Made by a program: the position numbers and the translations under genes. Under the pieces are notes generated by a model. The model was not told the origin of the DNA and did no database searches. It was given only the letters and a program-made list of their open reading frames with translations. Positions 11,942 through 32,287 of a DNA stretch of 41,346 bases are shown piece after piece. The first letter of the stretch is position 1; each line of letters starts with the position of its first letter. The stretch is from an uncultured delta proteobacterium (lineage in GTDB: Bacteria; Desulfobacterota; WTBG01; CAIYCZ01): positions 1 to 41,346 of the forward strand of contig CAWDOY010000050.1 in NCBI GenBank assembly GCA_963803975.1. Direction: 5' to 3'.

Positions 11942-13629
11942 ATGACCATTCATTCATCACTCGCTGCAGCGCACCCCTCATTCACCGCATTCAGGAAAAA
12001 TAAGACTTCCTGGACCATGCGCGCGGATGTTGTTTCAGTACTGCCCGAAAACCTCCTGCCGTTATTACATCACGCTGAACAGCATCCGGGGCTCTCCCTG
12101 CTCCGGGAGAATAACGTGCGCGCTTCTTTTTTTCTCAAGCTTCCCCAGGGCGGAGAACTCTTCATCAAGCGCTACAAGGTGCGGGGTTTGCCGGACATAA
12201 TTAAATATATGCTGCTGCCGTCAAAGGCGGCCGCAGAGTGGAGAACGCTTCGGCGCTGCGCTGAGAGCGGGCTGCCGGTGCCCCAGCCGGTTGCCATGGC
12301 AGAAAAAAAGAGCGGCCTGGCGCTGGAAGACAGCTGCCTGGTTGTTGAAGCCCTCACTGACGCGCTGCCGCTGAACGACTATTTTGAGCGCATGTTGCCT
12401 GCGCTCGCGCCTGCGGCTGCACGGCAGATGCGGACGTCTCTGGCAACAACGCTGGCGCATCTCGCGCACGAGGTCCATGGCAGGGGAATATTTTACCGGG
12501 ACCTCCATGCCGGAAACATTCTCATCCGCAGCAGATGCTGTTGGAGCGTATGAGCTGTTTCTCATCGACCTGCACCGGGCGCTCTTCCCGGTCCGGCTTA
12601 TGCAGTGGATGAAGGTGCGGGACCTGGCCCAGCTCTGCAACTCTCTTCCGGAATCCGCCGTAGACCGGGATATCTTCCTGCGGGAGTATTGCCGTGAAGC
12701 GCTGTGCGATGAAACAGCATTTCGTTCATCAATTGCAGCAGCATCCCGCGACATGGCGGCGCGGCGGCTGAAGAGCCGCGGTAAACGCTGCACGAAAAAC
12801 AGCACGACCTTTGAGGTATACGCGGGCGTTCCGGGAGCAGTACTGCGGCCGCCGGGATTTTGGCAGGCAGGCGTGCAGGAAAGCAATTGAAGAGCACCAT
12901 GGGGCAGTTGCGCACCATCAGGCGCAGATACTCAAGCAGTCAAAAAATTCCGTCATCACCTTCCATGAAAAATCAAGCGGCCTGCCCACGGATGCCTGCG
13001 TCAAGCATTACCAGTATCGCGGCATCAGGTATGTCCTGAAAAGCCTGTTCGCCAAAACCCGGGCGCGAAAAAGCTGGATCGCGGGAAACGCTCTCCTGGT
13101 GCGGGGCATCAGCACCCCCCTGCCTCAGGCGCTGGTGGAGCGAAAGTTCGGGCCGTTTGTTGTGGAGAGCTTTCTTGATAACGCAGTGGCTTGAAGGCGC
13201 CCGGGAGCTGAACGACTACGTCACCCACCTTGATCAGAAGAGCGTTTCTGCAGCGGTTAAACATGCGTTCATTACATCTCTTGCCGAAACAGTACGGGAC
13301 CTCCATGAAAAGGGAGTGTATCACGCGGACCTGAAGTCCACCAACATCCTGGTGCAGGAGCAGGCAGATTCAGCCTGGCGCTTCAGCTTTATTGATCTCG
13401 ACCGGGTGGCATGTAAAGATAGCCTTTCATTTTATGAGCGCGCCAATAACCTCGCGCAGATAAACGCTTCGGTAGCACGCTTGGTCGACTGCAAAAGAGC
13501 GCTTGAAATTTTTCTTCTGTTTACGCTAAAGGAACTGAGCTTTTTAGAGAGCGGAAAAAATATTACCGGGAAATTTTAAAGATCAGCCGCGCCAAGAACA
13601 CTGCACCTTTTGGCGTTATTTTTCGTTAA
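11942..13629 (+). CDS. LPS kinase (InaA/WaaP/KdkA family) with two tandem kinase domains; several frameshifts
   Basis: YRDLHAGNIL/LIDLHR in the first half and YHADLKSTNIL/FIDLDR in the second half, spread over overlapping ORF fragments. Confidence 0.8.
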
Positions 13630-20181: not shown

Positions 20182-21085
20182 CTATTTATACTCGTAAAAC
20201 CCTCTCCCCGTTTTCCTTCCCAGGTGCCCTACTTCCACCAGGCTCACCAGCAGCGGACAGGGCCGGTATTTCGGCTCCTTGAATCCGTCGTAGAGCGCCT
20301 GCTGCATGGACAGCACCACGTCAAGGCCGATAAAGTCCGCCAGCTCCAGGGGCCCCATGGGATGGTTCATGCCGAGCTTCAGCGCCATATCTATCTCTTC
20401 CCTGGTTGACACGCCTTCATACAAACAGAAAATCGCCTCGTTGATGAGGGTTTGAATCAGGCGGCTGGTAACAAAACACGGCCGGTCAGTCACTGTTATG
20501 GGTGACTTTACCCATCTCAAGCGCCAGGCGTTTAACAATCTGATACGTCTCCTCTGAGGTTGCGGGCGTCCGCACGATCTCCAGCAGCTTCATTTTCTGC
20601 GCCGGGTACATGAAGTGCATACCGATCACTTTCTCCGGCCGCTTTGTGGCGCGGGCAAGCCTGCCGACGGGCACGGAGCTGGTATTGGTGGAGAAAATAA
20701 CATGCGGGGCGCAGATCTTGTCCAGCGTTGAAAAGATATCAATCTTTGCCGCAGCGCTTTCCACCGCAGCCTCGATGATAAAATCCACTTTTGCCAGGTC
20801 CTCAAGGTTTTTTGAGAATGATATAAGAGACAGGACCCTGTCTTTGTCCTTTTTCTCAATTTTCCCGATTTCCACCGCCCGGCTGAGGTTGCCGGAGATC
20901 TCTTTCTGAGCCTTCTCAATCATCTCCTCGTAGGGTTCAACAACTATCACCCGGTACCCGGTCTGGGCTGCAACCTGGGCTATCCCCTTGCCCATCTGCC
21001 CGGCCCCGACCAGACCGATGGTGGTGATCAGTTTTTTTGCTGTCTTTTCACTTCTTTGCTTTGCAACCTTTTTTTGTGCTGTCAT
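20182..21085 (-). CDS. hbd: 3-hydroxybutyryl-CoA/3-hydroxyacyl-CoA dehydrogenase; frameshift near 20490
   Basis: GAGQMGKGIA, IEAAVE, STNTSS, GMHF and GMNHPMGPLELADFIGLD...GRKTGRGFYEY motifs. Confidence 0.92.
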
Positions 21086-21124: not shown

Positions 21125-21227
21125 GGGCCATGGGCAGGGTCAGAAGCCATTCAGAATTTTCTTTGTGCCTGCTGCCTTCTCAGTCTGCATTTCCCTAACC
21201 ACTAACCCCCGACCACCTGCCCCTGCC
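21125..21227 (-). repeat. ~105-bp dispersed element, copy 1 (hbd leader)
   Basis: Aligns by eye to the reverse complement of 23581-23731 once a REP insert in that copy is removed. Confidence 0.7.
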
Positions 21228-21245
21228 TCCGGTGACAGGCTTAAT

Positions 21246-21350
21246 AAAATAGTAAATCTATGGTGTTGTGTCAAATAAAAACTTGCCGCGCCGGACCGTC
21301 GGGCGCGAACGAAATATTTTATTGACATGCGCTATCGGTTAGGTTACTTA
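21246..21350. promoter_or_regulatory. Divergent sigma70-like promoters for hbd and marR
   Basis: Minus strand TTGACA (21269-21274)-N17-TATTTT; plus strand TTGACA (21322-21327)-N17-TACTTA. Confidence 0.55.
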
Positions 21351-21375
21351 ATAGTTCACATACTTAACTATTAAG
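21347..21375. promoter_or_regulatory. Perfect inverted repeat, probable MarR operator
   Basis: CTTAATAGTT-N9-AACTATTAAG overlaps the -10/+1 region upstream of marR. Confidence 0.7.
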
Positions 21376-21404: not shown

Positions 21405-21866
21405 ATGGCGAAACAAAATACCATGAGCAGAATAGAGGAAATTGAGCAGCACATCATTGAGTTCCGCAACCTGTTCGTGCAGCTGTTCAAAAAGATGGTG
21501 AAAAGCAGCAGCACCAGGGTCGGCATCCGCTTCAGTCCGTCCCAGATGCGCGCTATGGCGGCCTTTCATGAGGATCGGGAATATCGCATGGGCGAGCTCA
21601 GCAAGATTGCCCAGGTCACCATGCCCTTCATGACGGAAATGGTTGACGGGCTGGTAAAGGGGGGAATCCTTGAGCGCGTCAGGGACATTGCAGACAGAAG
21701 GGTCGTTAAGGTCAAACTGTCGAACCAGGGCAGAAACATTCACAAGCAGTTCCTGAAAACACGGGCCCGGGAGATGGAAAGCATTTTCGCCAAGCTCGAC
21801 AGCAGGGATCAGACAGAGTTACTAAAATCGTTAAAGAAAATGTCAGAGATTCTTAAAAAGATTTAA
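21405..21866 (+). CDS. MarR-family transcriptional regulator
   Basis: 153 aa; MGELSKI...MTEMVDGLVKGGILERVRDIADRRVVKVKLSNQG winged-helix pattern. Confidence 0.92.
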   Translation: MAKQNTMSRIEEIEQHIIEFRNLFVQLFKKMVKSSSTRVGIRFSPSQMRAMAAFHEDREYRMGELSKIAQVTMPFMTEMVDGLVKGGILERVRDIADRRVVKVKLSNQGRNIHKQFLKTRAREMESIFAKLDSRDQTELLKSLKKMSEILKKI

Positions 21867-21881
21867 GGAAAGGAACAGGAC

Positions 21882-22722
21882 ATGCGCCAGATAGCGATTT
21901 ACGGGAAGGGCGGGATCGGGAAATCGACGGTGGCAGCGCACCTCTCATACACGTTTGCCGACCGGGGGATGAAGGTGCTGCAGGTGGGATGCAGCCCGAA
22001 GAACGACAGCACCCGGCCGCTGCTGGATGATTTCCCGAAGACCATACTGGATGTATTGCGGGAAAAGGAATTTGACTATGAGGCAGTGGCAGTAAATGAC
22101 GTGGTGTATGAATCGCCCCTGGCGTTTAAGAACGGGGGCCGGGTTTGTTGTGCGGAGAGCGGCGGGCCGGAGCCGGGGGTTGGCTGCGGCGGGAAAGGGG
22201 TGGTGGAAGCGATCGAGACCCTGACCCGGCTCAATGTTTTTAAAAACTACAATTTTGACATGGTTATTTATGACATCCTGGGAGACGTGGTATGCGGCGG
22301 CTTTTCGCTGCCCATCCGTCAGGGCTACGCGCAGGAGACCTACGTGGTGGCGAGCGGAGAGCTTGAGGCTTTGTACCAGGTGACCAATGTGTCAAAGGTC
22401 ATCAAGCGTTTTGAAGTGCGCTCGGGTGCAAAGCTCGGGGGGCTGATCATCAACCTGCGCCGGGTAAAGAATGAACTGCAGATGGTGCAGGACTTTGCGC
22501 AGAAGATAGGCACGCGGATCATCGGCATCATCCCGTTCAGCCAGATGGTGAAAGGAATGCGGCGGGCAGGCCAAGACCGTGTTCACGCTTGCCCCTGACT
22601 CGGAAGAGGCCGGTATCTATACCGGGATCGGGGATGCGGTGCTGGCAAACAAAGATCTGGTGATACCGAACACCATTGAGTTTGAAGATCTGTATGACTG
22701 GTGGCTGCAGTATTTTGAATAG
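21882..22722 (+). CDS. Nitrogenase Fe-protein-like ATPase 1 (NifH/BchL/CfbC family); frameshift near 22554
   Basis: YGKGGIGKST, GCSPKNDST, ESGGPEPGVGCGGKG and DILGDVVCGGF. The shifted frame gives ECGGQAKTVF...FEDLYDWWLQYFE, matching the C-terminus of the paralog. Confidence 0.93.
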
Positions 22723-22731
22723 GAGGAGATA

Positions 22732-23577
22732 ATGCGACAGTTAGCGATATACGGCAAAGGCGGGATCGGCAAATCCATGGTTTCGTCCCACATCTCATTC
22801 GGCATTGCCGACAGGGGATTAAAGGTAATGCACGTGGGGTGTGACCCGAAGCATGACAGCACGCGGCTTCTGCTGCGGGGTAAAATGCCGAAGACGGTGC
22901 TTGATACCTTGCGCCGGAAGAATTTTGATGTCAAATCCATAACCCGTGATGAGATAGTATTTGCCAGCCCGCTGAACGAGGAGTGCAAGGGGAAGATCTA
23001 CTGTGCTGAGAGCGGCGGGCCGGACCCGGGGCTGGGGTGCGGCGGCAAGGGGGTCATCGAGGCCATCGAGACGCTCCAGCACCTGAATGCGTACCAGGAG
23101 CTGGAGCTTGACGCAGTGCTCTATGACGTGCTGGGGGATGTGGTGTGCGGCGGGTTCTCCATGCCGATCAGGCAGGGATATGCTGAGGAGATATATATCG
23201 TGAGCAGCGGCGAGATCGAAGTGCTGTTTGCCGCGTCAAACATCTGCAAGGCCGTGTCCAGGTTCACGGGCAGGTCCGGGGCGCGGCTGGGCGGCATCAT
23301 CGGCAACCTGCGGGAACTGAAGAACGAGGAAGAGATACTTACCACGTTTGCGGAGATGATGGGTACGCAGGTGGTGGGGTTTATCCCTTACAGCGAGAAG
23401 ATAAAGGAATGCTCGGGGAAAGGCATGACGCTCTACCAGCTGGCGCCTGATTCAAAGGAGTGTGATGCGTTCCGGACGCTCACCGAAAATATCTGGAACA
23501 ATAAAATGTTCACCATTCCCAAATCGATGAAGTTTGAAGACCTGTATGCCTGGTGGCGCGGCATAGTAAAGAAATAG
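22732..23577 (+). CDS. Nitrogenase Fe-protein-like ATPase 2 (NifH/BchL/CfbC family)
   Basis: YGKGGIGKS, GCDPKHDST, ESGGPDPGLGCGGKG and DVLGDVVCGGF; intact, with AGGAGG RBS. Confidence 0.95.
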   Translation: MRQLAIYGKGGIGKSMVSSHISFGIADRGLKVMHVGCDPKHDSTRLLLRGKMPKTVLDTLRRKNFDVKSITRDEIVFASPLNEECKGKIYCAESGGPDPGLGCGGKGVIEAIETLQHLNAYQELELDAVLYDVLGDVVCGGFSMPIRQGYAEEIYIVSSGEIEVLFAASNICKAVSRFTGRSGARLGGIIGNLRELKNEEEILTTFAEMMGTQVVGFIPYSEKIKECSGKGMTLYQLAPDSKECDAFRTLTENIWNNKMFTIPKSMKFEDLYAWWRGIVKK

Positions 23578-23580
23578 AGC

Positions 23581-23731
23581 GTCAGGGATTCGGGGTTGGG
23601 GGATCGGGGTTAGTGAAATGACGTAATGAGCAGACAACCGGCACCTGTCCTCCGTAGCAGTTTACTGCGAAGGGTGGACAAAGACACAGAGTAAATTCGG
23701 AATGGTCTTCTTGACCCTTGCCCCATGACCC
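23581..23731 (+). repeat. ~105-bp dispersed element, copy 2, with an inserted REP-like palindrome (23646-23680)
   Basis: Inverted homolog of 21125-21227; the insert is TGTCC-TCCGTAGCAGTTTACTGCGAAGGGT-GGACA. Confidence 0.7.
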
Positions 23732-23806
23732 TTGATTATGCTGAAAGCTGACCGCTGATGGCTGAATGCTTGCAATACAAATAACCAGACAAGGAGAGCG
23801 CAGATT

Positions 23807-25048
23807 ATGGCATTAAAAAATTATGAGCACTGCTGTTCAACAATTCAGGCACTGGCAAGCCTGGGAAAAATTGAAGGGGTGATACCGCTTCTTCACGGCC
23901 CGCAGCCCTGCTCCTATCAGAACCAGGTGGGCTCCATGTCGTGCCGTCCCTCCCAGCTGCTCACCGCGGGGACCCTCATCAACAAAAGCGATGTCATTTT
24001 CGGCGGCGAAGAAGGCCTCAAGCTGCAGATTGCAAACATCTACAAAAAATATAAACCGAAAGTCATTGTCGTCATCAACACCTGCGTGCCGCAGCTCATC
24101 GGCGAGGACATTGACGGCGTCATCGCCGAGCTCAAGCAGGAAATTCCCGAGCTGAAGGTGACCTATGCCCAGACCGGGTTCAACTTCCCGCGCTCCATGG
24201 TGCTGGGCTCTGATGTGTCCTGGGTAGCAATTGTTGAGACCTTTAAGCATCTGGACAAGACACCCGGCTCCATCGGCATTGTGGGAAGGGCCGGCCAGGA
24301 CGCGGGAAACCTCGCGGCCCTGGAAATCCCGCTGAAGAAAGCAGGTCTCAACACCTTTGTCTTTCCCGCTCCCCACATTGATGAAATGGAACGAATCGTG
24401 CGCGCTGAGCACATCTACCCGATCCACGTCACGCCCTATCTCACCTGCAAAAAGCTGGATGAGGAATTCAATACCGAAAGCCGCTATATTGAAATTCCCG
24501 CGGGCATTGAAGGAACGTCCCGCTTTCTGCGCGGCATCGCGGATTATGAAAAATGCCAGAAGCTGCATGACATCGTGGATGAAGAGGAAAAGCGCGTCAA
24601 GCCTGAGCTGGAAAAGATACGCAAAGAATTTGCCAAACAGAAGGTCCGCATGCTGCTGGTCTCAGGGCCGGCTAATGAGGTGTCCATCGGCAAAATCATA
24701 GCAGAGTTCGGCGCCGAGGTTTTTATTGTACCGGCCATGAAAAATAAATACATGCAGCAGGAGAAGAAAATCATGGAGGAGCGCTACGGCGCTACCTTTA
24801 TCGAGGAGGACTTTGACACGGTTGAGGACCTGATAAAACAGATCAGGCCCAACGTGGTGCAGGTCGAGTTCCAGGCCCAGGTGGAAACCGTCCCCTATTT
24901 CATTCCCACGCTCATCAACATGCTCTACCTGTGCGAATACGGCTATGACTACGCGCTTGATCTCGGCAGCAACTTTTTCAGGATTCTGCACCGGCCCATC
25001 TATGAAAAATGGCACCAGCTCATGCAGACATACGGAGGCTTACAATGA
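23807..25048 (+). CDS. Nitrogenase component-1-type oxidoreductase, BchN/BchY/NifD-like subunit
   Basis: HCC (C9/C10), LHGPQPC (C35), DVIFGGEEGL and NTCVPQLIGEDI (C93); 413 aa. Confidence 0.9.
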   Translation: MALKNYEHCCSTIQALASLGKIEGVIPLLHGPQPCSYQNQVGSMSCRPSQLLTAGTLINKSDVIFGGEEGLKLQIANIYKKYKPKVIVVINTCVPQLIGEDIDGVIAELKQEIPELKVTYAQTGFNFPRSMVLGSDVSWVAIVETFKHLDKTPGSIGIVGRAGQDAGNLAALEIPLKKAGLNTFVFPAPHIDEMERIVRAEHIYPIHVTPYLTCKKLDEEFNTESRYIEIPAGIEGTSRFLRGIADYEKCQKLHDIVDEEEKRVKPELEKIRKEFAKQKVRMLLVSGPANEVSIGKIIAEFGAEVFIVPAMKNKYMQQEKKIMEERYGATFIEEDFDTVEDLIKQIRPNVVQVEFQAQVETVPYFIPTLINMLYLCEYGYDYALDLGSNFFRILHRPIYEKWHQLMQTYGGLQ

Positions 25049-26775
25049 AAGACAATCTTCAGGCCGCTACACAGTTCAGGATGCAGGAAATACATACGCC
25101 GTCAGCCTTTGAGGGTGCGCTGTGGGCCGCGGTGGGGGTGAAGGACGCGCGCACCATTTTCCACGCGCCTCCCGGCTGCTATATCAACCAGCATGTCAAT
25201 ATCCTGGTCAACGACTGGACCACCGAGCTCTACTCCACCAACCTCTCCTATGCAAACGTCATGCAGGGCGCGGAGGAAAAGCTTGAGGTGACCATGCGCA
25301 AGGTGCTGGCAAAAAAGCCGGCTGCGGTAATCATCGTCACCGCGCCGAGCGTTGAGGTGACGCGGGATGATGTTGAGGGCGTGGCGCACAAGGTGGGATT
25401 TAAGGACACAATCATCATCCGCCCGCCCATCGGCGGCACGGTGGGTGAGGGAAAGGATGAAGCCTTCCTGCAGATGCTCTCCATCATGAAGCCGGCAAAG
25501 AAAAAGATCAAAAACGCGGTGAACATTATCGGGCCGACTTTTTCAACCTTCAACTGGCAGGCAGACGTATTCGAGCTGAAGCGGATGCTTTCCTTAATCG
25601 GGGTAAAAGTAAACGCGGTGATGTCCGCCGGCGCAACCGTCGCCGAGCTGAAGAAAGCGCCGCAGGCAGCTCTCAACCTGTGCATCTACCCGTACGACTG
25701 CGGGCAGAAAGTTGCGGCAGAGATGCAGAAACGTTTTGACGTACCCTATCTGGATGATATTATTCCCATCGGGTTTGAAAATTCTTCCGCCTGGCTGCAA
25801 AAAATCGGCCGGCTTCTCAACATCGATGCTGCGGCAGCAATAAAAGACGAGATGACCAATGCCTGGGAATTTGTCCGCTCAAACATGGTATTCTCGGTAG
25901 CCTTTGAAATGTCTGCTGCGCTCTCCCTCGAAAACAATAACACTCATGCCGTGGGCATCAGCCGCTTCCTGAAAAACGAGATGGGCATGGATGTGGTCAT
26001 GTGTGCCGTAAGCAGCCCTGCTGCAGGCGAGAAGATACGCGAGGTGTGCGACACGGTGATGGTATCTCCGACCATTGACGATAAGCGCGAGCAGTTCGTG
26101 GCAAAGTCTCCCATGGTAATCTTCGGCAACTTCTATGACAAGAAAGTGAGCATGGACGAGGGATTCACCAACTTCATCTTCGCTGACATCCCCACCATCG
26201 GCTACCTTAATACCGAAAACTGCCCGTTCATGGGCTTCATGGGCGCAAAATATCTGGTGCAGGCCATCGTCAATGAAGTGTACATGAAAATATTCCTTGA
26301 GACCAAGGGTGAGATTGCCGGCCCCATCTCATACGGAGATATTCCCTGGGACACGGCAGCGCAGGAAGCCATGATGAAGGTATCGGAAATGATCCCGCAT
26401 TTTGTCCGGGCCACGGCCATGAAAAAGCTGCAGCAGGTGGCGGAGCAGATGGCAAAAGAGCGCAACTCATCCATCACCCTTGCCATCATGCAGGAGGTCG
26501 CGGACAAGTACACGCCGACAAAGTTCAAGGCAAAATTTTCTTCTGTTTTTGACGGTGTCGAGGGTTCCCCTGCTGAAGAGGAGGAAGAGGTGCCCATTGA
26601 CCAGCTGCCGTATGTCATGGAGTGGGAGGACACGGCAAAGCAGGCGCTTGAAGAAGTGCCCTCTCCGTTCAGGGTGGCTGCCGTCTCCGGCACAGAAGAG
26701 TATGCGCGCAATCACGGCTACACAAAAATTACCAAACAGGTTATGGAAGAATTCAGAAAAGAACTCGGCATGTAG
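25045..26775 (+). CDS. Nitrogenase component-1-type oxidoreductase, BchB/BchZ-like subunit with two C-terminal PCP_red-like domains
   Basis: ATGA overlap with the upstream gene. Motifs FHAPPGCY, VNIIGP, DVFELKRML, PIGFENS and PFMGFMGA, plus two W(D/E)xxAxxA...P.F.R domains. Confidence 0.9.
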   Translation: MKDNLQAATQFRMQEIHTPSAFEGALWAAVGVKDARTIFHAPPGCYINQHVNILVNDWTTELYSTNLSYANVMQGAEEKLEVTMRKVLAKKPAAVIIVTAPSVEVTRDDVEGVAHKVGFKDTIIIRPPIGGTVGEGKDEAFLQMLSIMKPAKKKIKNAVNIIGPTFSTFNWQADVFELKRMLSLIGVKVNAVMSAGATVAELKKAPQAALNLCIYPYDCGQKVAAEMQKRFDVPYLDDIIPIGFENSSAWLQKIGRLLNIDAAAAIKDEMTNAWEFVRSNMVFSVAFEMSAALSLENNNTHAVGISRFLKNEMGMDVVMCAVSSPAAGEKIREVCDTVMVSPTIDDKREQFVAKSPMVIFGNFYDKKVSMDEGFTNFIFADIPTIGYLNTENCPFMGFMGAKYLVQAIVNEVYMKIFLETKGEIAGPISYGDIPWDTAAQEAMMKVSEMIPHFVRATAMKKLQQVAEQMAKERNSSITLAIMQEVADKYTPTKFKAKFSSVFDGVEGSPAEEEEEVPIDQLPYVMEWEDTAKQALEEVPSPFRVAAVSGTEEYARNHGYTKITKQVMEEFRKELGM

Positions 26776-26843: not shown

Positions 26844-27996
26844 ATGAAGAATTTCTTTTTAGGACTGCTGATTTTATTGTTGCTCGCGATCACTATCCAG
26901 TGCACAAAACCGCTGACCTTTACCTGTGATGTGGATACCACCAAAACAGGCTATGAGCTTGCCGGGGCATATGATGACTGCCTGGTCTGGAATGCCCAGA
27001 AGACCATGACCAACATTGAGAAAAAAGATATCGACATCCGGGCCACCAAACTGCCCCTGCTGGAATTCAGCGGCTCGTATGCAGTGCTGAATGCCGCGGA
27101 AAACTGGATACAGCCCTTTTATACGTTTATCACGGAAACAGGTGCTTATCCGACCCCGTCGGCAAGCATCAATAACGTGGTACTGGCTAAATTAAAGTCC
27201 AAAGACAGCGTGGATGCTGCCTTTGGATTCAGCGACAGCGAGCCGCAGGGGATCTGCGCGGATGTGCAGCAGGAGGTTTACGATACCGTGCTCAACAATG
27301 TCCTGACGAAGGAGCAGCGGGACAAATACCTGTCCCAGGGAAAACAGCTCTCCTTTATTCCCGATGATGCCCAGCCGCCGCTCAGTGATAAAACGAACCC
27401 GGTAAATAACGGCAGCGCATGGCTTAGTGTTGACCCGGCGACAAAAGTAACCCGGGATGGTAACAAGTTCTATTATGAGCCCTGGAGTCTGTATGTAAAG
27501 CTTGATGACCCCAATATTTCTGATGATAGGTTACGGGGGGTCAGGTATTGCAAGCTGCTGAGCCACCAGGCACTGCTCAGCTGGATGCTGGAGAAGAGTT
27601 TTGAAGAAAACCCGGTTTTAATAACCCCCAGTAAGCCCGTATGCGACGGGCCCTCTTCACTGGACTCGGGAAATGGCAGCTGCCTGTTCTATTCAGAATT
27701 ATACGGCAATAATTATTTCTGCGCTGACTACACGGGTCCCGGATTCACCCCGGAAAACACGAAAGAAAAATGCAACACCAACGCCGCCTATGATAAACGA
27801 AGTCTACAGCACCTCGCCGTGCAGTGCACGAACTGCGGAAATTGCGGCGTACATACCCGGCTACCAGGGCCTGACGGGTATCTGTGTTGTCCACTGCAAA
27901 GAGACCAATGAGTTCATCCTGAACATCTATAATTCAGATCCGGAGTCAAGATGCGGGGGCTTTGATTTTTTTACGCCGGGAGAATTGGGGAAATAA
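26844..27996 (+). CDS. Exported, probably lipid-anchored Cys-rich hypothetical protein; frameshift near 27795
   Basis: MKNFFLGLLILLLLAITIQC signal with strong RBS; the C-terminus continues in ORF 27673-27996. Confidence 0.7.
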
Positions 27997-28066
27997 ACGG
28001 TTTCAGTCATGCGATGTTCGGCATAGTGTATAATGAAAATTATCTAACGCCTCGGGAGATAGCATT

Positions 28067-29108
28067 ATGAAAATTACAAGACTTCTGGTTATAGCAGCAG
28101 CATTTGTTTTCACGGCATTCTTTGGTTCTCACCCGGTAAACGCTATTGAATGCCTTCGCGCGCCGCTGCCGCCGGCCCTGGACGCGCTGACGTCCGATAG
28201 GGCGGTTGCCGTTTCAACCGTGGAAGTTGACAGCTGGGACGGCACGAACCCTGCCCCTATAGATGACAATATTTATTATGCCTTCATGCCTAAAAAAACA
28301 GTGCCTACCGTCGGGTTCATAATACTTCCGGGAGGGAACTGCGACCCCCGGTCGTACGCGCCTGCCGCACGCGACATTGCCGCCAAAGGATTTTTTACCT
28401 GCATTATTCCCATGCCGAAATGCATCGCAATACCAGGGTACGAGAGAGCAGACAAAATAATCAGCGACTATGGAAAAATTAAGAAATGGGCAATCGGCGG
28501 GCACTCGGTGGGGGGGGTGGCTGCGGCTATGTATGCCAAGGCATCCACCGCAGTAAGCGGGGTAGTCATCTGGGCATCTTATGTGAACGCGGAATTAAGG
28601 CTGGATGACACCGCGCTGAAGGTCCTTTCTGTTACCGGCTCCCTGGACGGCAGGGCAACGCCTGAGCAGGTAAAGGAAAACGCTGTTTATCTGCCCGCGG
28701 ACACGGTCTTCGAGGAAATTGAAGGCGGAAATCATACCCAGTTCGGCTGGATTGATCCTTCTCCGTATCCGTATCCTTACCTGGAACAGGATAATGCTGC
28801 CACCATCACCATCGAAGAGCAGCAGGAACTAATTGTACGGGTTACGGCAGATTTTCTGAAACAATTTAAAAAGAACATATGCCCGGTAGTCTATCTTTTG
28901 GGAAAAGAAGACCCGCGGGTAAACACCGTCAGAAAAGTTCGCGATGAACTCCTGGCAAAAAGCTCATCAGGTCAGGACATAATCGCATTGTATAAGAAAC
29001 ACGGCGCGCAACTGATTGCGATATTTGAGAGCAGCCCGGTGATTAAAGATGCTGCCTGCGAGGAAGTTATTGGGGGCAATAATACCGGTAATAGAGTTTT
29101 TATTGTAA
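28067..29108 (+). CDS. Secreted alpha/beta hydrolase (Abhydrolase_5-like) with CP-type C-terminal domain; indel near 29060
   Basis: Signal peptide; ILPGGNCDPRSY, GGHSVGG, GSLDG and IEGGNHTQFG. The alternative frame ends KLLGAIIPVIEFLL, like the paralog. Confidence 0.85.
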
Positions 29109-29235
29109 TCAATGCGCATCAGCAATAATCTCACCATCAAATAAAAAGATACGTGCCCGTCATATTCCGTCCACGTATCCGGAAAGACATATTCCCACAA
29201 ACAAAACATATTTACTAACCGTGAGGAGCACATTT

Positions 29236-30265
29236 ATGAAGATACAAAAATTAATTATTGTTTTTATACTGTCACTATTCATGGTTTTTAGTTTTAGTGA
29301 TTATGAGGCGGCAGCTCAACTTGAGCCCAGCCATCCCCCCATGCCGGAAGCATTAGAGGCCATGGAATCAGATATCAGCGTAACAGTAGAAACGGTTGAA
29401 GTGGCAGAGTGGGAAGAAGGTTCAAACTACTATTATGTTTTTAAACCAAAATACGCAAATCCGAAAATAGGGTTTATTTTTTATCCGGGAGGGCTGGTTG
29501 ATCCGCGGGCATACGCACCCCCTGCGCGTGCAATTGCAGCAAAAGGGTACTTAACCGTGATTGTAAAGATGGTACGTGATCTTGCGGTGTTCAGCTCTGA
29601 CAGGGCAGATAAGATAATAAGCGATTACAGCGGGATCAAAACATGGATAATAGGCGGACATTCCATCGGCGGCTCTTTTTCCTGCAGCTATGCCCAGGGT
29701 CATACGGACAAAATTGACGGGGTTGTGCTCTGGGCTGCCTGGCCGTCAGAAGGTTTTCGTCTGGATAATACGGACCTTAAAGCAATCTCGATTTATGGCA
29801 CCAAAGACGGGCATCCGGATGAGATCAAAGCCGGAGCAGAGCATCTGCCTGAAGACACGCCGTTTGTAGAGATCGAGGGAGGCAACCATACCCAGTTTGG
29901 CTACTACTGGGATGGAGTAAATGAGAATTTCGTTCAGGAAGGTGACAACCCTGCAGACATTTCCAGGGAAGCGCAGCAGAAGCAGATCATTAAAGCAACC
30001 CTGGATTTTCTTGAGCAGTTTAAAGAGAATACATGCCCGGCAGCATATCTTCTGGGAGCAGGTGATACACGGCTTGGCACGCTGCGGCAATTTCGCGATA
30101 CGGTTCTGGCAAAAAGTTCTGCCGGGAAAAAGCTCATTCAACTTATACTACACCAATGGTAACAGCATGACGGCATTATTTGATCATAGCCCTGCAATAA
30201 AAGATTCTGCAAAGAAGGTATTGGAGTTATTTGTACCGGTAACTGAGTTTCTGATGGCATTTTGA
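29236..30265 (+). CDS. Secreted alpha/beta hydrolase (paralog) with CP-type C-terminal domain; frameshift near 30143
   Basis: FYPGGLVDPRAY, GGHSIGG, GTKDG and IEGGNHTQFG motifs. Confidence 0.87.
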
Positions 30266-30332: not shown

Positions 30333-32287
30333 ATGAAACTGTTGGAACCGGGCCGTATCGGAACACTGGAGATTAAAAACCGTATCATTATGGCGCCCAT
30401 GGGCATCCGCGGGGTGTGTGATGCCGGATCAGAAGAGTACTGGGGTGAGCGCGTACGTGCATACTATGGGGCCCGCGCTGCCGGCGGTGTCGGCATGATT
30501 ACGACCGAGATGGTATTCGTTACCCAGGCTCTGGAGCCCTGCGCAAAAGAACTTCTCAGCATGGCTAATGACAAGCACGTTGCAGCAATGCGCAAGCTTG
30601 CAGAAACGCTTCACTGCCTATGACTGCCGGCTGAGCATTCAGCTGACTGCCGGTTTCGGCCGCGTAGTACCTGCCTTCATCGTGCCCGATGGGGTGAAGC
30701 CGGTCTCAGCCTCGGAAAACACGAACTTTTATGTTCCTGATTATCCTGAATTGAACAGCCGGGCGATAACCACTGAAGAAGCAGAGGCGCTGACCCGGTC
30801 GTTCGGCTTTGCAGCGCTGCGCTGCCGCGAGGCAGGAGCCGACTGTGTTGAGCTGCACGGCCACGAGGGCTATTTTATGGACCAGTTCATGACCGGCCTC
30901 TGGAACCGGCGTGATGACCGCTACGGCGGCTCTCCGGGAGAAGCGGCTCACCTTTGCACGGGAAGCGATTGAAGCAATCAAGCGCGATGCAGGCGCTGAT
31001 TTCCCGATTATTTATCGCTTTGGCATCAAGCACCATCTTGCAGGCGGTAGAGTTGAGGAAGAGGGGCTGTGGATCGCCGGAGAGCTGGAGAAAATGGGCG
31101 TTGCCGCGCTGCACGTTGACGCCGGCTGCTACGAGACCGGCTGGTGGCCGCATCCGCCGCAGTACCAGCCGCCGGGCTGCATGGTGGAGCTGGCCGCGAA
31201 AGTTAAAAAGGTCAGCAGCCTGCCGGTTATTACCGTAGGCCGTCTGCAGTACCCGGATGTGGCGGAAAAGGTTCTGGCTGAGGGAAAGGCCGACTTTATC
31301 GCCATCGGCAGAGGGCTTCTATCGGAGCCGGAATGGGTCAATAAAGTGCAAAGCAACAGGACCGCTGAGATCAGGCCGTGTATCGGCTGCCATGAGGGCT
31401 GCCTGTGGCAGATGATCGCCGGAGAGCCGACCAGCTGCTCGCTGAATCCTGTCTGCGGGCACGAAACCGATCGGGTGCTGGTTCCGCTGAAACAGAAAAA
31501 ATCTCTCCTGGTGGTCGGGGGCGGGCCGGCCGGCATTGAAGCAGCACGGGTGGGCGTGCAGCGGGGCTTTGCTGTTACCCTGTGGGAAGCCTCTGACCGG
31601 CTGGGAGGAAATCTCTGGCCTGCTTCAAAGCCTGATTTCAAGCGGGATATAGCAGACTATATAACATTCCTCACGGGACTTGCCGGGCGGCTGCCAATTG
31701 ATGTTGTGCTTAACAAACGGGCCAATGCCGGGGATATTCAAAGCTTCGCTGCCGATTATGTCATCCTGGCTGCCGGTGCGGATATGGAGCCGTCCCCGCT
31801 TGACGGTAACAATGTGCTGACAACGATTCAGCTGCTGAATGGGATGGAGCCCCGGGGAGAAAGAATCCTTATCATGGGCGCAGGGGTTATTGGGTGCGAA
31901 ACCGCGCTGTATCTGGCAAGCCAGGGCAAAAAGGTTACGCTGTGCGCGCGACAGGATTCCGCTGAACTGGACACGGATATTATCGACATCCATAACCGCG
32001 AAATGCTTTTGAAGATGATACGGGAAGAAAAAAATATCACGGTGCTGCGCGGCACGATTCCTTTACGGCTGGACGGTGACGGCGTTGTGGCTGATCAACA
32101 GGGAGCTGAGAAGAAGATTCCCATGGACAGCCTGGTTTTTTCAGGTCGTCTGTTTCCGCACAACGAACTCAGCAAGTTGTTTGTCAACAAACCAAATGTT
32201 ATCAGCATTGGTGACTGCAAAGCACCCGGCACGATCATGGATGCCGTGTGGGGGGGATTTAATACCGTCAGAGAAATTGAAACATAG
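30333..32287 (+). CDS. NADH:flavin oxidoreductase (OYE/enoate reductase/BaiCD-like: FMN TIM barrel, 4Fe-4S, FAD domain); two frameshifts
   Basis: KNRIIMAPM, ELHGHEGY, RDDRYGGS, CIGCHEGC...CSLNP, GGGPAG and GAGVIGCE motifs. Confidence 0.92.

Follow-up and report, generated by a model that had tools for sequence, protein, structure and literature searches.

A marR-H1-H2-N-B operon of an uncultured delta proteobacterium: a probable nitrogenase-like reductase beside Group V with two unlike Fe-protein paralogs

A 41,346-nucleotide stretch of DNA from an uncultured delta proteobacterium (assembly GCA_963803975.1, contig CAWDOY010000050.1; called the window below, at its full length) carries a five-gene operon, marR-H1-H2-N-B, at positions 21405-26775 of the forward strand. 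This operon is real and probably encodes a functional variant of the nitrogenase-like (NFL) reductases. Judged by its sequence, the enzyme stands beside Group V and is neither a dark-operative protochlorophyllide oxidoreductase (DPOR) nor a chlorophyllide a oxidoreductase (COR), with its two component-1 subunits, N and B, showing mixed affinities. The new point, and the most testable new feature, is a conserved asymmetric pair of Fe-protein paralogs, H1 and H2. To our knowledge, no ATP-driven machines for very low-potential reductions exist other than the nitrogenase-like enzymes, and new chemistry has come from every NFL clade characterised so far. The clade described here adjoins the enzymes behind chlorophyll-based life, yet it is found in non-phototrophs, and it is large and unstudied.

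Gene content and position among known families

The first gene, marR (21405-21866), encodes a MarR-family regulator that passes the general Pfam cut-off (PF01047, 29.7 bits vs 24.6) and reaches no NCBIfam equivalog cut-off. It is followed by two genes for NifH-like Fe proteins, namely H1 (21882-22722; PF00142, 262 bits), which has serine at the position of NifH Asp39, and the canonical paralog H2 (22732-23577; PF00142, 310 bits). N (23807-25048; PF00148, 184 bits) is a component-1 subunit of the NifD/BchN/BchY type with Cys10, Cys35 and Cys93, and B (25045-26775; PF00148, 214 bits, together with PF08369) is one of the BchB/BchZ type with a single cluster cysteine, Cys45. An earlier note on this DNA had read these five genes as an operon ending at 26775; all five are present, their Pfam families match and the end coordinate is correct. 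The note had also proposed translational coupling of N and B, and indeed the N stop codon TGA (25046-25048) overlaps the B start codon ATG (25045-25047), with a GGAGG 8 nt upstream. This start of B at 25045 agrees with the homologs, rather than with a longer frame from 25009. In the C-terminal tail of B, two stretches pass as PCP_red (PF08369; 55.4 bits vs a cut-off of 32.5), the best of them at amino acids 527-570. PCP_red is the C-terminal domain of BchB. As had been stated before, no nifB, nifE, nifN, bch or cfb gene is found by Pfam among the 38 open reading frames (ORFs) of the window.

Assignment to a named family was tested against the NCBIfam equivalog cut-offs, given here as bits scored of bits needed, and none was reached by any subunit. 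The scores were 181 of 490 for BchB, 146 of 529 for BchZ, 66 of 420 for BchN and 19 of 425 for BchY. For the Fe proteins and the remaining family they were 310 of 394 for NifH, 302 of 402 for CfbC and 43 of 268 for CfbD, H2 and H1 scored 208 and 187 of 345 for BchL, and the two BchX scores were 178 and 172 of 331. Among solved structures, B comes closest to chains of BchB/ChlB (best E 1.7e-22), and N to chains of NifEN, NifK and NifD rather than of BchN.

When 1.84 billion representatives were scanned with B, 1153 relatives came up. The nearest are P0038, which belongs to the family of B itself, P0121 (45% identity) and P0122 (35%); after these come proteins without a label, at 25-30%. NCBIfam labelling covered 111 of 119 full-length relatives; among the matches listed, the BchB cut-off was passed only by P0167, P0230, P0233 and P0247, and that of BchZ only by P0168. 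In a component-1 tree of 78 rows (quick search, LG+G4), B, P0121 and P0122 form a clade with support 100, whose sister group (SH-aLRT 86) includes BchB and BchZ, as clades of their own, together with two families that carry no label. The B family, BchB and BchZ are thus three separate clades, each with support 100. Placement beside Group V, outside DPOR and COR, follows from B lying outside the BchB and BchZ clades together with the missed equivalog cut-offs. These same results agree with the claim that the system belongs to no characterised clade; nesting within a known clade, with the cognate pathway in the genome, was not observed.

In an alignment of N and B with NifD/K/E/N and BchN/B/Y/Z, Cys10, Cys35 and Cys93 of N fall in the columns of NifD Cys62/88/154, and Cys9 is an extra cysteine, replaced by glycine in locus L033. 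Cys45 of B, within the motif HAPPGC, lies at the HAPQGD site of BchB and shares its column with NifK Cys95, the BchZ cysteine and the BchB aspartate. The remaining two NifK cysteine columns hold serine and proline in B, and N and B together have four of the six P-cluster cysteines. The alignment therefore bears out the three cluster cysteines of N named in the earlier note, with Cys10 (not Cys9) as the column member, and the single B cysteine with the other two P-cluster cysteines missing. Conservation was followed in 105 related loci, 27 of them from 21 genome records and 78 from metagenomes. The three cysteines are kept in 79/79 full-length N ORFs. At the B site, the 90 ORFs that cover it have cysteine in 84 cases, tyrosine in 6 (one subclade) and aspartate in none; another ten B ORFs are truncated by the end of their contig. 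The tyrosine-type subclade consists of L033, L112-L115 and L117, whose B proteins are about 50% identical to B and about 525 amino acids long.

On this alignment, one COR-type [4Fe-4S] cluster is predicted per N/B interface. The coordination of the COR cluster has itself been only implicated by mutagenesis, in the available part of PMC13474568. The proposal of an ATP-driven nitrogenase-like reductase with one DPOR/COR-type [4Fe-4S] site is supported by the ligands, the families and the clade position. The 3+1 cysteine pattern that had been taken for the DPOR/COR type holds for a single cluster of this kind, but it is COR-like (cysteine) and not DPOR-like (aspartate).

Two unlike Fe-protein paralogs

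H1 and H2 are about 53% identical to each other; with NifH they share 41-49% identity, and with BchL and BchX 33-39%. In the tree, each has its own clade of orthologs (100/96 and 97/96), the two clades branch internally in parallel, and on this reading H1 and H2 are old paralogs. H2 has the P-loop, switch I in the form GCDPKHDST (Asp39, Asp43), switch II, Cys97 and Cys132. H1 retains all Fe-protein motifs except Asp39, with GCSPKNDST vs GCDPK in NifH, BchL, BchX and H2. The substitution is a property of the family, as the Asp39 column holds serine in 14/15 H1 orthologs and aspartate in 17/17 H2 orthologs. Among the 105 loci there are 35 tandem H pairs, the two genes being adjacent in every one of them, and the order is serine then aspartate in 34. 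The sole exception is L033, where the first H keeps Asp39; this locus belongs to the tyrosine-type B subclade.

In NifH (variant D39N) and at the equivalent position of Get3, Soj and MinD, this aspartate is said to activate the attacking water. By analogy, serine at this position should permit ATP binding and slow or stop hydrolysis. In the sister loci L120 and L123, the gene order is radical SAM-SPASM, H, N, B, radical SAM, with a single H of the aspartate type. H1 is, on the H tree, the derived copy, because this single aspartate-type H groups with H2.

A parallel case was found among the longer relatives of H2. Of the 120 proteins listed (P0283-P0402), 99 are about 580-600 amino acids long and consist of two NifH-like halves; examples are encoded in L133 (7846-9600) and L134 (7598-9352). 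The first half has serine and the second aspartate in 96/99, and Cys97 and Cys132 are kept in both halves. Lys10, the residue that reaches into the nucleotide site of the partner, is missing from the second half in 58/99. In the H tree, the fused halves group together, apart from H1 and H2; the duplication is therefore independent and the asymmetry convergent. One fused gene, that of L134, stands directly after two PF00148 genes, and for this reason the fused double-NifH proteins are taken as the Fe proteins of another NFL system. The L134 gene lies among genes for 3-hydroxyacyl-CoA dehydrogenase, aldehyde dehydrogenase and CoA ligase. This setting hints at a further NFL system, still uncharacterised and possibly acting on CoA esters.

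H1 and H2 most likely make up one asymmetric heterodimeric Fe protein, and a heterodimer with one working ATP site is favoured because of the Ser/Asp parallel in the fused double-NifH family. The recurrence of this asymmetry suggests a general design principle, and the unlike H1/H2 pair would be a natural experiment on what each ATP site contributes to nitrogenase electron transfer. Literature searches turned up no account of a natural Fe protein that is heterodimeric or fused. In the available part of PMC13474568, Fe proteins are treated as homodimers and the sole heterodimer in the references is an engineered one.

In the assembly, H1 reads as 238 amino acids (plain open frame 21882-22598) and looks truncated because of one extra base, a G near 22550-22554. 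The protein has 279 amino acids in the relatives L017 (97% identical) and L019, and none of the three public runs covering the site (one RNA run and two DNA runs) has the extra G in its contigs. H1 is intact and its true span is 21882-22722; a pseudogene is ruled out by the intact relatives and by the three runs without the extra base. Several other genes of the assembly are split or shifted like H1, including those for 3-hydroxyacyl-CoA dehydrogenase, the flavoenzyme of the old yellow enzyme (OYE) type, a Kdo/WaaP kinase, RhuM and HsdM/R; the window coordinates noted for such genes are 20182-21085, 30568-32287 and 11942-13579. At 27794, within a gene for a 355-amino-acid protein, the contig of an RNA run is without one base of the assembly. 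Splits of this kind fit single-base assembly errors.

Regulation, host genome and the likely substrate

Upstream of marR, a putative promoter and operator span 21322-21375 of the forward strand, with TTGACA at 21322-21327 and a perfect palindrome, CTTAATAGTT-N9-AACTATTAAG, at 21347-21375, 30 nt before the gene. This is the single exact copy in the genome. A genome-wide search for a second copy at 0 or 1 mismatch found none, so a regulon could not be defined; 18 further sites carry two or three substitutions (17 at three, one at two). Relatives have TTGACA and AT-rich palindromes of the TTTCA-N-TGAAA type at the equivalent place, and the palindrome is a candidate operator for MarR. A consensus scan for promoters and terminators gave no convincing terminator within the operon, and the number of terminator-like sites equalled the expectation from shuffled sequence. 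The spacer between H2 and N (23578-23806, 229 nt) is variable between strains; contigs of public runs break, skip or replace letters there, and its length in relatives ranges from 23 nt (L019) to 170 nt (L017).

The stretch is present in 20 public runs from 16 studies of freshwater and sediment. All five genes are covered by contigs of two sediment metatranscriptome runs, which is consistent with transcription, although DNA may be present in contigs of RNA libraries and a single study supplied both runs. Gaps in RNA depth at 21134-21367 and 26984-27217 fit the ends of the operon; as contigs of one study, they give no evidence for transcript ends.

The host genome (4.25 Mb, 98.1% complete) gave no match for NifB, for a CobN/BchH-type chelatase or for type I or type II reaction centres, and the controls of the searches for phototrophy genes (BchH-type chelatase, reaction centres) responded. 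The earlier description of the host as an apparent non-phototroph is thereby upheld. Its only two strong NifH-like matches both lie in the marR-H1-H2-N-B operon, and it holds three N/B pairs, two of which are located on contig C3, beside chelatase-fold genes, and have no Fe proteins. One C3 pair has its own MarR gene on the 5' side, and genes for a CbiX/CfbA-like chelatase-fold protein and a geranylgeranyl-reductase-like (GGR-like) flavoprotein on the 3' side; a CbiX/CfbA-like gene follows the pair N3/B3. The system had been called an orphan, which is true within the window but not of the genome, given the two further N/B pairs on another contig. The genome also encodes a cluster of corrinoid genes and a uroporphyrinogen methyltransferase.

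The operon is thus the Fe-protein-bearing hub of a set of three modules, and its family is large, uncultured and unstudied. Among 8000 candidates scored, homologs of B form 230 clusters at E 0.001 or better, and the family comprises 230 protein clusters or more, uncultured Thermodesulfobacteriota being the source of nearly all. Identity in the best 120 of these 230 clusters falls from 99% to about 50%, with a length of about 575-590 amino acids in nearly all of them. Where names are given, they are hypothetical, 'nitrogenase component 1' or automatic ChlB/BchZ labels. The genome records are metagenome-assembled or single-amplified genomes labelled Thermodesulfobacteriota, Deltaproteobacteria or Proteobacteria, with one Spirochaetota and one Gammaproteobacteria. 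In an even sample of the phylum, the family occurs in 7/401 genomes (6/255 genera), all within the class of the window. The order H1-H2-N-B is found in 16 genome loci, with marR or a marR-like gene first in all of them except L033, and in many metagenome loci as well. A MarR gene is present in 41/105 related loci and in 30/53 of those of at least 10 kb. Family members are strongly conserved.

The account towards which we lean, if only mildly when it is taken as a whole, is that of a heterodimeric Fe protein working with a COR-like (NB)2 component on a tetrapyrrole, under MarR control and with the Fe protein shared between N/B pairs. The H1/H2 heterodimer would hold a single [4Fe-4S] cluster through Cys97 and Cys132 of each chain; H2 would provide a canonical ATP site, and the serine of H1 would leave one nucleotide site probably slow or dead in hydrolysis. 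N and B would form the catalytic (NB)2, with a cluster at each interface bound by Cys10, Cys35 and Cys93 of N and Cys45 of B. From this cluster, electrons would pass to a substrate pocket partly closed by the double PCP_red tail of B, and the substrate would most likely be a tetrapyrrole-type macrocycle, reduced at a C=C bond. MarR would repress the operon at the promoter palindrome until a ligand arrives. The H1/H2 pair presumably also drives the two N/B pairs on C3, because the genome has no other Fe-protein genes. We infer all of these steps: that H1 and H2 pair, that one ATP site is dead, that the substrate is a tetrapyrrole, that MarR represses and that the Fe protein is shared.

A tetrapyrrole appears to be the likely substrate from the make-up of B and from the neighbouring genes. 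Among the 53 loci of at least 10 kb, chelatase-fold genes occur in 8, bilin-reductase-like genes in 10, and one or the other in 18. B12 radical SAM genes of the BchE/HpnJ-like type also occur, a B12 radical SAM gene is found in 8/105 related loci, a heavy-metal P-type ATPase adjoins N/B in 6/105, and the sister locus L120 has a gene for a CobN-type chelatase. If the substrate is a tetrapyrrole, the system would represent either an undescribed reduced cofactor or an undescribed anaerobic route of pigment turnover.

Several observations weigh against this account. No chelatase-fold or bilin-reductase-like neighbour is present in 35/53 long loci, and the commonest downstream neighbours of the window-type operon, DUF1302 (10/53), DUF1329 (9/53), SDR (9/53) and MMPL (6/53), are uninformative on tetrapyrroles. 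The N family forms a long-branch clade among NifD/NifE-like proteins and does not group with BchN/BchY. B has asparagine in the column of BchB Asp274, which we take to be the proton donor of DPOR. As for the Fe proteins, the P-loop, Cys97 and Cys132 are present in both H1 and H2, which makes homodimers of each possible; the fused double-NifH family is an analogy and not an ortholog of H1/H2; and the catalytic role of Asp39 is presumed from work on NifH, Get3, Soj and MinD. An Rfam search over the window and the C3 locus found no riboswitch or other family inside the operon.

The Fe proteins may be arranged differently, with H1 and H2 as separate homodimers for different N/B partners or with H1 as a slow-hydrolysing factor of maturation or cluster insertion, which we regard as a tentative possibility. 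It would accord with the homodimeric state of all Fe proteins known to the available part of PMC13474568, with the retention of the P-loop, Cys97 and Cys132 in both paralogs, with the three N/B pairs for two H genes in the genome, and with locus L032, where a lone H2-type gene follows the N/B pair. The adjacency of H1 and H2 in 35/35 two-H loci, with Ser/Asp in 34, speaks for the heterodimer instead, as do the retention of both H genes even in genomes with one N/B pair and the two impaired sites that an H1 homodimer would have; the fused Ser/Asp double-NifH, moreover, shows unlike halves working within one molecule. Another variant keeps the enzyme as proposed and changes its purpose, from cofactor synthesis to salvage, breakdown or respiratory reduction of external tetrapyrroles such as chlorophyll, haem or bilin debris. 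Under this scheme, which is conceivable and in our view doubtful, the reductases would dearomatise or saturate the macrocycle, chelatase-fold proteins would take the metal and a P1B ATPase would export it, and OYE-type, bilin-reductase-like and PNPOx-like enzymes would complete the reduction. Ligand-inducible control of the MarR type with an operator-like palindrome, three paralogous N/B pairs, the roughly ten bilin-reductase-like paralogs of the genome and its many genes for GGR-like FAD and PNPOx-like enzymes would all suit it, as would the two exported alpha/beta hydrolases downstream, the heavy-metal ATPase in the six loci mentioned and the occurrence of the DNA in freshwater and sediment runs of 16 studies. 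The OYE-type enzyme of the window (an OYE/FadH-type Fe-S flavoenzyme, 30568-32287) also scores best against the long form of bilirubin reductase (275 bits, vs 235 for BaiCD); this score, however, is far under the cut-off of 750 and barely over other OYE families. The neighbouring genes differ from locus to locus, a tetrapyrrole-specific uptake system was not identified, and the genome makes its own corrinoid and sirohydrochlorin precursors, so that a biosynthetic role is equally open. Inducible turnover of available pigments fits several features at least as well as housekeeping cofactor synthesis does.

Departing further from the preferred account, the likeness of B to BchB/BchZ might reflect shared descent only, and the substrate might be an unsaturated or aromatic compound of another kind, such as a CoA ester or a hydrophobic molecule dealt with by DUF1302/DUF1329/MMPL proteins; we consider this rather improbable. 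DUF1302 and DUF1329 genes do lie 3' of the operon in 10/53 and 9/53 long loci, and 6-9 kb downstream in the window; a 3-hydroxyacyl-CoA dehydrogenase gene stands divergent upstream in the window and close relatives, the fused gene of L134 has CoA ligase, 3-hydroxyacyl-CoA dehydrogenase and aldehyde dehydrogenase genes around it, and N is not BchN/Y-like. The characterised NFL enzymes MAR and ISR use small sulfur compounds, according to the available part of PMC13474568. This reading is opposed by the PCP_red tail and BchB/BchZ affinity of B and by the recurrent chelatase-fold, bilin-reductase-like, BchE-like B12 radical SAM and CobN-type neighbours; furthermore, the genome has about ten DUF1302/DUF1329/MMPL clusters, mostly far from N/B, and adjacency may be a matter of chance. 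Membership in Group VI, a named and uncharacterised NFL group (Meheust et al. 2020), is unlikely. What is available of its description (PMC13474568; bioRxiv 10.1101/765248) gives it a proposed tetrapyrrole substrate, no NifB and at most four of six P-cluster cysteines, and reports it from 'Myxococcales' genomes of aquatic sites; L120 and L123, the sister loci, have radical SAM genes on both sides. The Group VI NifH is, however, placed there as a sibling of group V (bioRxiv 10.1101/765248), and H1 and H2 join NifH (SH-aLRT 89). Fusions of the form H-H-component-1, one cluster of which is named Polyangiaceae, join BchL/BchX (94), in a tree that holds no authentic Group VI reference. Radical_SAM has 0 matches among the 38 ORFs of the window, and the available description of the group does not include two H genes, MarR, the PCP_red tail or this gene order. 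Least credible of all, and in our judgement barely so, is a cryptic bacteriochlorophyll-making DPOR/COR or a decaying pseudogene cluster. Relatives do carry automatic labels such as 'light-independent protochlorophyllide reductase B subunit' and 'chlorophyllide a reductase subunit Z', and H1 is frameshifted in the window. Yet the equivalog cut-offs are missed by wide margins, B is outside the BchB and BchZ clades, and BchH/CobN and reaction centre genes were not found in the genome; as for decay, the frameshift base is missing in 3/3 covering runs, many genes of the assembly are split alike and the family is strongly conserved.

A bolder combination of these ideas is improbable in our estimate. 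In it, one live and one dead ATP site would spend about 1 ATP per electron, not two, as the motor for three COR-like modules that dismantle tetrapyrrole debris of the sediment in an inducible, anaerobic pathway. The modules would saturate the rings of chlorophyll, haem or bilin stepwise, as a counterpart of ATP-driven benzoyl-CoA dearomatisation.

Other features of the window and genome were recorded alongside. Directly downstream of B, the region 26844-30162 encodes the 355-amino-acid protein mentioned above, which has no family match and a Cys-rich end, and the two exported alpha/beta hydrolases (Abhydrolase_5); this trio also lies 3' of B in L054 and L055, and partly in L018. In the host genome, bilin-reductase-like clusters are located on C8 (11-19 kb), C25 (50-57 kb), C31 (64-70 kb) and C4 (8-14 kb), and they also hold SDR, PNPOx-like and GGR-like FAD enzymes, a P1B ATPase and a B12 radical SAM gene. 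The DUF1302/DUF1329/MMPL clusters are spread over the genome, for the most part at a distance from N/B genes. Within 7-1837 on the minus strand lie pieces of a group II intron, with Rfam domains at 7-82, 1530-1613 and 1666-1837 and a reverse transcriptase ORF at 607-1092, also on the minus strand.

Comparison with named systems

Among named enzymes, COR (BchX, BchY, BchZ; NFL Group V) is like the present system in being a two-component ATP-driven reductase with three cysteines of the D-type and one of the K-type subunit in the same alignment columns, and B is related to BchZ (146 bits) and adjoins its clade in the tree. COR differs in that the BchZ, BchY and BchX cut-offs are all missed and N is not BchY-like; it has one Fe protein where two paralogs are found here, and the double PCP_red tail and a host genome without phototrophy genes set the operon further apart. 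DPOR (BchL/ChlL, BchN/ChlN, BchB/ChlB) shares the C-terminal PCP_red and the heteromeric N/B design with overlapping N and B genes, and its B chains are the best solved relatives of B. In contrast to DPOR, B has cysteine for the BchB aspartate ligand and asparagine at the presumed Asp274 column, the scores stay at 181 of 490 bits for BchB and 66 of 420 for BchN, and B falls outside the BchB clade.

Group VI (NflH/NflD/NflK) resembles the present system, as far as its available description goes, in being uncharacterised, without NifB, with at most four of six P-cluster cysteines, from uncultured bacteria and with a proposed tetrapyrrole substrate. The same sources describe it as rich in radical SAM neighbours and its NifH as a sibling of group V (PMC13474568; bioRxiv 10.1101/765248). 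Here, H1 and H2 group with NifH, not with BchL/X and the presumed Group VI fusions, and the window has no radical SAM suite; in its place are MarR, tandem unlike H genes and the PCP_red tail, as compared with what is available on Group VI. The fusions in question are proteins of about 1080-1100 amino acids (P0306, P0309-P0314, P0321 and others) with two aspartate-type NifH-like halves, which join BchL/BchX in the H tree, and a PF00148 domain. They are possibly the published Group VI.

CfbCD is an NFL that reduces a tetrapyrrole and has a simple [4Fe-4S] cluster, as is proposed for the present system. H2 scores 302 bits with CfbC vs 310 with NifH, and a CfbA/CbiX-like chelatase gene follows N3/B3. 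Unlike the two different subunits N and B, CfbD is a single homomeric subunit, and the cut-offs are missed for both CfbD (43/268 bits) and CfbC (302/402 bits). From Nif/Vnf/Anf and MAR, the system is separated by having four of the six P-cluster cysteines and a host genome without a NifB match.

For the Fe-protein pair, the nearest comparisons lie outside the natural NFL enzymes. An engineered heterodimeric nitrogenase Fe protein was reportedly described by Chan et al. in 2000, and ArsA is a natural asymmetric P-loop dimer. Both are like the proposed H1/H2 heterodimer in combining one functional and one altered nucleotide site in a dimer coupled to a single centre. Unlike that of the engineered heterodimer, the asymmetry of H1 and H2 is natural, ancient and conserved, being kept in 34/35 pairs.

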